Assembly (NCBI GenBank): GCA_002719295.1
Contig: PBHC01000005.1
Coordinates: forward strand, 64,001-128,000
Reading direction: 5' to 3'
Source of the DNA: Chloroflexota bacterium
GTDB taxonomy: Bacteria > Chloroflexota > Dehalococcoidia > Lucifugimonadales > Lucifugimonadaceae
DNA: 64,000 nucleotides
The position numbers and the translations under genes are program-made. The first letter of the stretch is position 1. Each line of letters opens with the position of its first letter. Positions 29,676 through 59,873 of this stretch are shown here, piece by piece. The notes under the pieces are model-generated. The model saw nothing but the letters and a program-made list of their open reading frames with translations. It was not told where the DNA came from and did no database searches.

Positions 29676-30527
29676 TTAGTTATCCTCTAAGTCTTTAAGA
29701 AAATTTTCAATTTCAGGAGGCAGATCAATTTCTTCTTTTTCAGAAGCTTCTATCTCAAATTGTTTTATCATTTCATTAACTTGATTGTTATTTTGTAGAT
29801 TTTTGTGTATTTCAATATATTGATTTTCACCTTTTTTTCTTTCGGGAAAATCTTTTGAGAATTTATATATATGAGATAAGCTTTCTAACAATCTAGATGT
29901 AGCTAGAAAATCATCTTCTAGTTTTACATAAAGAGGGATATGTACCATTAGGGATAATGTTTCTAAAGAGAGATCATTGTGTAAAATTTGTGATAACTGT
30001 GAAGTCATACTTGTTGGTCCTGTATAATTTGATTTGTTTTTTAATGTTTCATTTAATGGTTCAGGTGGAATCCATCCTTTATAGCTTCCAGTGACGGGTA
30101 AAGGTTTAGTATGAGGTACAGAATCAAACATTCCTCCTATAGAAATATATCTTTTACCTTGAAGATTTTTAATTAAATCAACAATAGCTAAATTAAATTC
30201 CTCTGCAAAATTATGAGGTTCCAAAAGATATAGTAAAAAAATATTTTGATCAGATTGATTTTTACTTCCGAAAATAACAGTATTAGGAATTCTGATTTTT
30301 CTTTCACCATTTTCATTTAATAGTTCAGGTCTATAACGAGTCATATCATAATATTTACTAGGGTTCTTAAGCTTTCCAATTTCTTCAAGATTAAAAATTT
30401 TTACTAATCTGCTAATTGTATGGTGACCAACATTCCCAACATTTATCCAAGGCCTAAGAATACTTATAAAATGACTATTTTTATAGTTTGATATAGGTAT
30501 ATTTAGTTCAAATTCTTTAATATTCAA
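29676..30527 (-). CDS. PAC2 (proteasome assembly chaperone-like) family protein
   Basis: PWINVGNVG, YYDMTRYRP, LEPH, DSVPHTKP, YTGPTS, HIPLY, EIENFL. Confidence 0.8.
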   Translation of the reverse strand: MNIKEFELNIPISNYKNSHFISILRPWINVGNVGHHTISRLVKIFNLEEIGKLKNPSKYYDMTRYRPELLNENGERKIRIPNTVIFGSKNQSDQNIFLLYLLEPHNFAEEFNLAIVDLIKNLQGKRYISIGGMFDSVPHTKPLPVTGSYKGWIPPEPLNETLKNKSNYTGPTSMTSQLSQILHNDLSLETLSLMVHIPLYVKLEDDFLATSRLLESLSHIYKFSKDFPERKKGENQYIEIHKNLQNNNQVNEMIKQFEIEASEKEEIDLPPEIENFLKDLEDN

Positions 30528-30614
30528 TTTATTTTATTTAATTCTTTTTTTAAAAATTTTACATATTTATATAATAAAAATAAATGTATCAAAAATAAAA
30601 AATAAAAAAAGTTA

Positions 30615-30643
30615 TTGAAATAATTTTTTGATATCACTATTAT
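30615..30643 (+). promoter_or_regulatory. Sigma70-type promoter TTGAAA-N17-TATTAT
   Basis: Each box is 5/6 consensus with 17-nt spacing; predicted start about 30650. Confidence 0.6.
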
Positions 30644-30703
30644 TTAATTGTAATGCTTATGCATTATTTAAATTTAAACAAGTATGAAAGGAGGATATTT
30701 TAA

Positions 30704-30739
30704 TTGGAAACGAATAATAAGCGAGGTGCTCTTAACTGA
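30704..30739 (+). CDS. Putative 11-aa micro-peptide METNNKRGALN
   Basis: TTG start 9 nt after AAAGGAGG (30687-30694); TGA stop at 30737-30739. Confidence 0.35.
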   Translation: METNNKRGALN

Positions 30740-30766
30740 AGGCGCCAAGAGGGTTAAGATACCTCC

Positions 30767-30823
30767 ACTAAGAGTGAAATTATCCGGTAAGGTTTCTCCT
30801 TACCCGATAATTTCACTCTTAGT
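30767..30823. repeat. Long inverted repeat (18 bp + C/C mismatch + 7 bp, 5-nt loop)
   Basis: ACTAAGAGTGAAATTATC-C-GGTAAGG tttct CCTTACC-C-GATAATTTCACTCTTAGT. Confidence 0.95.
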
Positions 30824-30844
30824 ATTTAAAAAGAGATAAAAAAA

Positions 30845-31327
30845 ATGATTAGACATTTTACTTCTACTGTTTTTGTAGTATTTGAAAATAAAATAGCTTT
30901 GCATTGGCATGAAAAGGTCAACATGTGGTTACCTCCAGGTGGACATGTTGACAATAATGAAGATCCCATTCAAACAGCAATTCGTGAGTGTAAAGAAGAA
31001 ATGGGAATTGATATATCTATATTTTCTGATAGCTCTTATAAATTTACTGATGATAATTTGAAAAATATTTATCCACCAGAAACGATACTTATAGAAAACG
31101 TAAATGATAATAAAACAGGACCACATCAGCATATCGATTTTATTTATTTTGGTTATCCTAACTATTCTAAGTTCGATTTAAATTCTGAATGGATTTGGGT
31201 AAATAAAAAAGATTTAATTAATGAAGTTGAATTTAAGAATCCATACTCGAAATATTTTCCACCACCTAATGATGTTAAAATTTTAGGTATTGAGGCGTTA
31301 CTTAAATTAAAAAATCTGAACAAATAG
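30845..31327 (+). CDS. NUDIX hydrolase
   Basis: Nudix box GGHVDNNEDPIQTAIRECKEEMG; RHFT N-terminus, HQHIDFIY. Confidence 0.92.
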   Translation: MIRHFTSTVFVVFENKIALHWHEKVNMWLPPGGHVDNNEDPIQTAIRECKEEMGIDISIFSDSSYKFTDDNLKNIYPPETILIENVNDNKTGPHQHIDFIYFGYPNYSKFDLNSEWIWVNKKDLINEVEFKNPYSKYFPPPNDVKILGIEALLKLKNLNK

Positions 31328-52048: not shown

Positions 52049-52204
52049 TTAAGCTACTTTAGGTTGAGTTTTCCTAAGTAATTCTAAAGCTTCTGATTTA
52101 GAAATTTCTTTACTGCACTGAATGCATGATAAATGAAATTTTCCATCGTAATCAGTATTTATTTCAATATCTCCGCCACATGGGCAACATTTAGAATAAA
52201 TCAC
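52049..52204 (-). CDS. Small Zn-ribbon-like protein (51 aa), not in ORF track
   Basis: GTG start after SD GAAGGA; MIYSKCCPCGGDIEINTDYDGKFHLSCIQCSKEISKSEALELLRKTQPKVA. Confidence 0.75.
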   Translation of the reverse strand: MIYSKCCPCGGDIEINTDYDGKFHLSCIQCSKEISKSEALELLRKTQPKVA

Positions 52205-59527: not shown

Positions 59528-59873
59528 AGGTAAAAGAAAGACGAGTGATCGCTGGCTTTGCCAGAGGAAAGTCCGAGCACCACTAGGATAAAGTGCCTGT
59601 TAACGGCAGGGCAGGGCAACCTGACGGATAGTGCAACAGAAAATATACCGCCATTATGGTAAGGGTGAAAAGGTAAGGTAAGAGCTTACCACAAATTTGG
59701 TAACAAGTTTGGTATTGTAAACCCCACTTGGTGCAAGGCTAAATAGAGGAACGATAAGTTATCCTAGACAGTTCCCGGGTAAGCTGCTCGAGCTAGTTGG
59801 TGACAGCTAGCCTAGATGGATGATCACATCTACATATAGAAACAGAACTCGGCTTATAGTCTTTCTTTTATCT
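59528..59873 (+). ncRNA. rnpB: RNase P RNA (bacterial type A)
   Basis: GAGGAAAGTCC, AGTGCAACAGAAA, AAGGGTGAAAAGG, GGTAAGAGC, ACAGAACTCGGCTTA; P1 helix AGGTAAAAGAAAGAC/GTCTTTCTTTTATCT; TATAAT at 59486-59491. Confidence 0.98.

Follow-up and report, generated by a model that had tools for sequence, protein, structure and literature searches.

A conserved, folded mini-gene with two ribosome-binding motifs in a marine SAR202-type bacterium

In the genome of a marine SAR202-type bacterium, we found a folded and conserved mini-gene of about 175 bases in which an 11-codon open reading frame (ORF) is placed between two ribosome-binding (SD) motifs, SD1 and SD2. Judged by sequence comparison, the element is real, conserved, and uncatalogued, and it is of a known kind, the free-standing micro-mRNAs with an oversized SD, on record since rreB was described. 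The Chloroflexota family offers a comparative handle on the role of such RNAs. Its peptide drifts, while four nucleotide features are kept, namely the reading frame, an SD2 at 6 to 9 nt before the stop codon, stop codons in the -1 frame, and a helix between SD2 and an anti-SD strand, and these kept features allow that role to be probed by mutations aimed at termination and recycling. SAR202 is an abundant deep-ocean lineage. The element is a candidate core regulatory RNA of SAR202, and no Hfq, CsrA, or 6S RNA match was found in the genomes tested.

The element and its distribution

The window, by which we mean the whole 64,000-nt stretch of DNA that was analyzed, has the element in a 317-bp gap flanked by a divergent PAC2-family gene and a NUDIX hydrolase gene (Table 1). 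A preliminary description made from the sequence had named a promoter, a 5' hairpin, an SD, an ORF, a stem, and a 25-bp hairpin, and all of these parts were found in place. It had also called the gap the longest intergenic one in the window, which it is not, as the gap with the RNase P RNA measures 401 bp; two larger gaps in the map of ORFs of at least 100 amino acids contain shorter ORFs.

Table 1. Features of the element and its flanks (positions in the window)
Feature	Positions	Strand	Remarks
PAC2-family gene	29676..30527	-	Divergent neighbor of the mini-gene in its genus
Predicted sigma-70-type promoter	30615..30643	+	-35 TTGAAA 30615-30620, 17-nt spacer, -10 TATTAT 30638-30643
5' terminal hairpin, 7 bp	30650..30667	+	Predicted fold; the transcript likely starts here
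SD1, 9-nt complement of the 16S rRNA 3' tail	30686..30694	+	From sequence
SD1 arm	30690..30705	+	Predicted pairing with the anti-SD strand (closed fold, P1)
Micro-ORF METNNKRGALN, 11 codons	30704..30739	+	TTG start, TGA stop; TAA TAA inside in the -1 frame
SD2 (GAGGTG, 30723-30728) and 5' arm of the conserved hairpin	30723..30736	+	8 nt before the stop codon
GGCGCC segment	30741..30746	+	Forms the loop of the open fold and a helix with 30725-30730 in the closed one
Anti-SD strand	30751..30766	+	Pairs with SD2 or SD1; its terminal ACCTCC copies the core of the 16S tail
25-bp hairpin (18 bp, C-C mismatch, 7 bp)	30767..30823	+	Other clades have their intrinsic terminator at this place; the U-tract here is weak
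NUDIX hydrolase gene (PF00293)	30845..31327	+	Neighbor in the family; not a fixed partner of the RNA

The support for the promoter comes from conservation and not from the match itself. By itself the match is not above chance, with 9 sites found against 14 ± 4 expected, but the boxes reported earlier are present, both are kept in the genus alignment while the spacer between them diverges, and TATAAT-like boxes are present upstream of distant homologs. At the position of the 5' hairpin, genus homologs have a hairpin of different sequence (by eye from the alignment), and in other clades the 5' domain is longer and different. In other families (loci L143 to L168), the roughly 70 nt ahead of SD1 contain a 5' stem directly next to SD1; the purine-rich loop that this stem closes has a recurring GA(U/C/A)AG motif.

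At SD1, GAAAGGAGG has one of its two occurrences in the 1.27-Mb genome; the other is the 16S tail, read as its complement, so that this 9-nt string is unique apart from the 16S gene. The length of the complement, measured against the 16S tail of the window's genome, G000, is 8 to 12 nt in SAR202 homologs and 13 to 15 nt in the class pattern set, where the pattern itself required 13 nt.

With BLAST, the element was found beside the same neighbors in all 12 of the 12 genus relatives, and 19 metagenome loci came from an exact pattern. The range was then widened with three covariance models in succession. R1 detected the element in 5 genomes of two other genera, R2 in 111 of 150 genomes of the family (in 62 of the 74 that are near-complete) and 31 of 151 order genomes, and R3 in 77 of the 151 genomes sampled from the order, 13 of 151 from the class, and 29 of 151 from the phylum, the class and phylum matches having weak E-values, the phylum count being taken at E ≤ 0.1, and the homologs being kin, which makes such conservation counts non-independent. 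There is one locus per genome; second covariance matches are nearly all the long hairpin read on its other strand. When all GTDB species were scanned with a pattern, which like the covariance models contains SD2 and the TAG repeat by construction, 105 loci were obtained, all of them titled Chloroflexota, Chloroflexi, Dehalococcoidia, or SAR202. A class-level pattern matched 26 of 251 genomes and had no match in the reversed control, and a loose pattern in genus g5 gave matches no commoner than those in its reversed control. The element was not detected in the sampled genomes of three small-genome genera of the family (0/15, 0/5, and 0/4) or in about half of the sampled order genomes, which is to be read as nondetection in the sample and not as absence. 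Viral contigs yielded 4 pattern matches, none with the architecture of the element, and no NUDIX relative.

For expression, the region from 30612 to 31150 was searched in 4 of 16 RNA runs, each with a small share and as contigs that reveal neither ends nor level. A single 214-nt contig, which may be DNA, covers 30676 to 30879 at a depth of 3.5, through the hairpin and into the NUDIX gene; two of the other runs gave only pieces of the NUDIX gene, and one gave none. From the sequence, we infer that a discrete RNA is transcribed from about 30650 to about 30830.

The reading frame, the second SD, and the fold

Of 33 loci from the genus and from metagenomes, 31 have an ORF of 11 codons (the other two are truncated), with all three stop codons occurring; the ORF has 10 to 12 codons in 39 of 40 family loci (L293 was unparsed) and 9 to 11 codons in 88 of 88 distinct scan hits. 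In the phylum sample, a strict parser found 10 to 23 codons with a -1 stop in 20 of 28 hits, and a looser parser recovers 22 of 26. Overall, homologs range from 9 to 24 codons and use ATG, TTG, and GTG starts and all three stops. Both in the scan hits (88/88) and in the family loci (39/40), the spacer between SD and start varies by single bases and the ORF length by whole codons. The encoded peptide takes 42 different forms among 88 scan sequences, and the nucleotides of SD2 are read as R-C, G-V, or E-V depending on the clade, that is, in three frames. By this pattern of variation, the ORF is selected for its frame and not for its peptide.

Stops in the -1 frame fall within the first 7 codons in 9/9 genus, 31/31 family, 85/85 scan (where they are built into the pattern), and 24/24 class sequences (where the pattern required TAR in any frame), and +1-frame stops in the same stretch are found in 0/9, 6/31, 15/85, and 4/24, respectively; the homologs are kin, so these trials are not independent, and L274, L275, and L294 were skipped and L401 has no short ORF, here as for the SD1 lengths above. 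Ordinary genes of this genome have stops in 488 (-1) and 645 (+1) of 796 cases. Three other interpretations of the coding sequence were rejected: a 51-codon frame from an ATG inside the SD, since 1-nt spacer changes in relatives break it; selenocysteine read-through of the TGA, since relatives have TAA or TAG; and a serine-sensing leader, since Ser codons are absent from the genus and the TAG triplet is retained even with AGA, AGG, and AAG as the codons over it.

SD2 keeps its distance from the stop codon. The distance is 8 nt in 14 of 14 sequences, 7 or 8 nt in 88 of 88 scan hits, and, in 36 of 39 family loci, again 8 nt, the other 3 having 11 nt. In class loci found by a pattern without SD2, SD2 lies 6 to 9 nt before the stop in 17 of 24, versus 12 of 417 long-ORF stops in the fetched loci. 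The search for an SD2 ahead of the stop gave nothing in 7 of 25 loci at class level and 8 of 22 at phylum level. One phylum-level family (L356, L357, L359, L369, and L372) has a doubled SD core and, before the stop, an anti-SD-like string, not SD2. Genus g13 (L141:1415-1636; L283, L285, L291, L292, and L306 to L311) has an insertion of about 80 nt in the loop of the SD2 hairpin, and these copies retain the 11-codon ORF and the 8-nt distance.

The region from 30645 to 30845 folds at -66.9 kcal/mol (z = -7.6), and none of 200 shuffles was as stable. The stem named in the preliminary description, between the SD2 arm and positions 30753 to 30765, is a helix conserved across the order, but it is not the minimum-energy fold in this genome, in which the anti-SD strand pairs with the SD1 arm. 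That description had called for homologs and a covariation test; homologs exist across Chloroflexota, and the SD2:anti-SD helix covaries. In 32 sequences, 91.9% of the cells of this helix are paired, a fraction that 0 of 500 shuffles reached and to which slid controls of 44 to 58% compare, and two-sided changes occur in 6 of its 10 pairs. Two-sided changes were counted in 15 of 20 pairs for the 25-bp hairpin and in 16 of 20 for the SD2 helix and the second hairpin in the 32 sequences; both structures come from RNAalifold on the same alignments, toward which the covariation counts lean. In 14 family sequences, 96.4% of the cells of the SD2 helix are paired; for the SD2 helix and the second hairpin, the figure is 98.6%.

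After the equivalent 3' hairpin, a T-rich tail as in intrinsic terminators follows in 59 of 75 other-order homologs (L274 and L294 skipped and duplicates collapsed, as also for the extended helix below). The second hairpin of this family is longer and has a weaker tail than that of other families, and a terminator scan found none at the element. The C-C mismatch recurs in 7 of 8 genus and 28 of 37 family sequences by a crude pattern. GGCGCC is a family-level motif, and other families have a GTGTTC motif after the stop.

The closed fold, SD1 with the anti-SD strand, is predicted to be dominant (P ≥ 0.85) in 9 of 9 genus sequences, and in 14 family sequences both folds lie within 0.7 to 5.5 kcal/mol of each other. 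The extended SD1 helix beats shuffled spacers in only 3/8 genus, 5/37 family, and 0/75 other-order sequences, and because of this poor support beyond the family we regard it as a local elaboration. A general bistable switch was accordingly rejected and is kept as a local feature only. In folds of fragments without the 5' domain, SD1 pairs downstream in 10/10 genus, 36/40 family, and 57/79 other-order cases when the ribosome footprint is held open; without the footprint, it is predicted to be open (>0.5) in only 0/10, 14/40, and 3/79, respectively.

A ribosome-docking reading and its precedent

The known RNAs of this kind are the rre small mRNAs, rreB in Bradyrhizobiaceae and rreR in Rhodobacterales, described by Hahn et al. 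(PMC5711450). According to that description, rreB is a free-standing mRNA of 165 nt whose SD spans 17 nt and whose 14 codons begin with GTG; this mRNA co-sediments with the 30S subunit, is weakly translated, decays in a start-codon-dependent manner, and can be overexpressed without an effect on growth. The comparison with the element is one by description. Alike are the free-standing RNA, some 165 nt long and equipped with a promoter and a terminator, the oversized SD, the SD predicted to be partly hidden in a stem, and the neighbors that are not conserved between lineages (PMC5711450); for the element, a free-standing transcript with promoter, terminator, and variable neighbors is read from sequence only. 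The rre short ORFs have about 14 to 18 codons and a weak start codon (PMC5711450); that of the element has 11 codons and a TTG start, and its homologs have 9 to 24 codons with TTG, ATG, or GTG.

The differences described are of several kinds (PMC5711450). In the rre mRNAs, a complementarity of 16 to 17 nt reaches the GTG start, whereas the element has 9 nt (8 to 15 in homologs) and a free spacer. The rre peptide is conserved within its clade, whereas that of the element drifts. The element has, in addition, SD2 before the stop and the -1-frame stops, neither of which is described in the available rre text; the first six codons of rreB, as given by the primers in the supplement, contain no -1 stop (PMC5711450). 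By analogy, the RNA of the element likely works like an rre mRNA to which SD2, the anti-SD helix, and the -1 stops are added. The earlier suggestion of an undescribed system is partly right. For Chloroflexota, a literature search at the level of result lists brought up no paper on this RNA, but from Alphaproteobacteria, micro-mRNAs are described that are free-standing and have an oversized SD (PMC5711450). An SD placed before a stop codon is not addressed in the available portions of PMC5972666 or PMC13009471.

We favor, tentatively and stopping just short of calling it probable, the reading that the RNA is a ribosome-docking micro-mRNA, which would load and briefly hold ribosomes and would serve neither to make a useful peptide nor to control the next gene. 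SD1 would bind the 30S subunit tightly, and initiation at UUG would be weak. Ten elongation steps would then unzip the SD2:anti-SD helix. With the stop codon in the A site, SD2 would be about as far from the P-site codon as an SD is at initiation and could pair with the 16S tail again, which would slow release or recycling of the terminating ribosome. The distance from GGAGG to the P site at the stop is about 6 to 8 nt, and the optimum for SD spacing is given as 5 to 9 nt (PMC5711450). The freed anti-SD strand would close SD1 and limit reloading, the closed fold being the predicted resting state in this genus, and the -1-frame stops would release ribosomes that had slipped or begun out of frame. 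The net role may be to park or meter ribosomal subunits, or to report the supply of free ribosomes through RNA fold and decay; the peptide is likely a by-product.

This docking reading is drawn from the conservation of the element, SD1, the frame-preserving ORF with its drifting peptide, the SD2-stop distance that is kept across frames, the -1-frame stops, the SD2:anti-SD helix, the downstream pairing of SD1 when a footprint is held open, the 3' hairpin, and the variable neighbors, and the precedent of rreB, with its 30S co-sedimentation, weak translation, and start-codon-dependent decay, supports it (PMC5711450). Several points speak against it. SD1 has only 9 nt here and is rarely predicted to be open, the extended SD1 helix is not general, SD2 was not found in some class and phylum loci, and the RNA went undetected in three small-genome genera and in about half of the order sample. 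The one RNA-library contig over the element continues into NUDIX and may be DNA. In the account of Hahn et al., moreover, a 20-fold overexpression of rreB left growth unchanged, the authors argue against simple ribosome titration, and rreB derivatives with a 14-nt SD were mostly outside the ribosome pellet (PMC5711450). We are more doubtful of a wider form, in which a two-SD device throughout the phylum would catch a ribosome, run it over 10 to 20 codons, and park it after termination, the mimic of the 16S tail acting as release or lock. If true, it would be an RNA-encoded ribosome storage device or recycling sensor in Chloroflexota.

Other readings, neighboring genes, and known RNA families

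The anti-SD strand could also act in trans. In this reading, which we consider unlikely, the RNA is a translation-gated small RNA whose anti-SD strand, set free when a ribosome melts the hairpin, would serve as the seed for SDs on other mRNAs. C-rich anti-SD seeds occur in Hfq-independent small RNAs, and no Hfq was found in five of five genomes. The conserved copy of the 16S tail core would lie just beyond the footprint of the terminating ribosome, and the unit is free-standing. However, the strand covaries with its partner in cis, whereas a seed for many targets would resist covariation, and three phylum-level homologs (L356, L357, and L359) have a different arrangement.

It is improbable that the RNA makes a functional micro-peptide and that its structure only limits the dose. 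Throughout the phylum, starts of the form M-D/G-x-x-S turn up repeatedly, the family repeatedly shows G-[AV]-L encoded with synonymous Leu codons, and the RreB and RreR peptides are described as conserved within their own clades (PMC5711450). Against this stand the clade-dependent reading of the SD2 nucleotides and the spread of ORF lengths given above; further, AGT is the codon of almost every serine, a sign of constraint on nucleotides, and the peptides of this genus are entirely without serine. Of the first two of the three forms in which the preliminary description had put its claim, a new small RNA or micro-peptide mRNA, we can uphold a stand-alone RNA or micro-ORF mRNA without an Rfam family, on the grounds of conservation, covariation, and the frame-preserving ORF. 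A sequence-specific peptide product is not supported, as the same nucleotides are read in three frames across clades.

The preliminary description had further proposed a leader of the downstream NUDIX gene. Attenuators of the trpL type have a short ORF whose stop lies in a hairpin directly before a terminator, and the element resembles them in that the stop of its ORF lies in a hairpin with a terminator-type hairpin directly after it. NUDIX follows directly in its own genus and in two other genera, the U-tract here is weak, and the one RNA-library contig on the element spans the hairpin into NUDIX. The comparison ends there: the element has no conserved co-directional downstream operon, no conserved control codons, and no conserved antiterminator that we could see. 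In a fourth genus of the family, an opposite-strand DUF2267 gene sits between the element and NUDIX. At 22 loci from other families, the downstream gene encodes CinA, a phosphotriesterase, an aminotransferase, a methyladenine glycosylase, or others and is often convergent, a divergent glyoxalase gene lies upstream in 15 of the 22, and NUDIX was not seen among the flanking ORFs scanned (88 of 145). MurE and BirA genes flank several class-level copies (26 of 36 ORFs scanned). Conversely, no such element was found upstream of the NUDIX orthologs of other families among the matches listed. The variable and often convergent neighbors indicate a free-standing element and not a NUDIX leader, and we consider ribosome-dependent attenuation of NUDIX very unlikely. 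Two observations on neighbors may be added. The class-level copies L318, L320, L321, and L325 have a gene for a Mur ligase on one side and one for a biotin ligase (BirA) on the other. In the order sample, families with the RNA largely overlap families with this NUDIX subfamily even when the two are unlinked, which probably reflects shared ancestry.

The proposed Rfam check agreed with an uncatalogued element. No family reached its gathering score at the locus, where the E-value list had only generic hairpin matches, and RNase P was the sole match in the window (class A, 59533 to 59872 on the + strand, 305.6 bits). Among 15 homolog loci, the best match was BjrC68 at 28 bits, driven by the terminator and below the 39-bit cutoff. 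Ms_IGR-5 (RF02471) is described as a validated, uncharacterized, NAD-capped small RNA of actinobacteria (10.1101/2021.12.14.472595; PMC10454040). The RF02471 model (gathering threshold, 45 bits) scored nothing at the element in G000 or in 4 carriers, and the family is absent from the Rfam match lists of the window, the locus, and the 15 homolog loci.

Housekeeping RNAs were searched with their own models. The 6S RNA model RF00013 had no match in G000 or in five of five relatives, and the fold of the element is without the 5'-3' closing stem and central bubble of the 6S rod. Canonical SRP RNA is found elsewhere in the genome in three of three distant carriers tested (G168, G163, and G203), and tmRNA and RNase P are located elsewhere in G000. 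RNAs of the CsrB/RsmZ type require a CsrA in the host, and CsrA (PF02599) was found in 0 of 5 carriers (G000 is 81% complete, and the other four are 93 to 97% complete). That the element is a divergent 6S or SRP RNA, or an RNA titrating CsrA or Hfq, with an incidental ORF, is thus hardly credible, although it has one locus per genome and repeated GGA and ARN-like triplets, with no 6S match in those six genomes and no SRP match in three genus genomes: the SRP and 6S models do not match at the element, neither titrated protein was found in the five genomes, and the ORF frame is under selection.

The SRP search gave an observation of its own. There was no RF00169 match in G000, G007, and G002, one of which is 97% complete (RF01854 was tested in G000 only), and three family relatives of this genus score 72 to 73 bits. 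A divergent or lost SRP RNA in the streamlined genus of G000 is possible. Identical sequence contexts also occur on two contigs each in G000 (C12 and C19, and C1 and C20), which suggests duplicated assembly segments. Lastly, a 51-codon ORF at 52049 to 52204 (+) of the window, after an ATP synthase epsilon-like gene, has two Cys pairs and may presumably encode a zinc-ribbon micro-protein.
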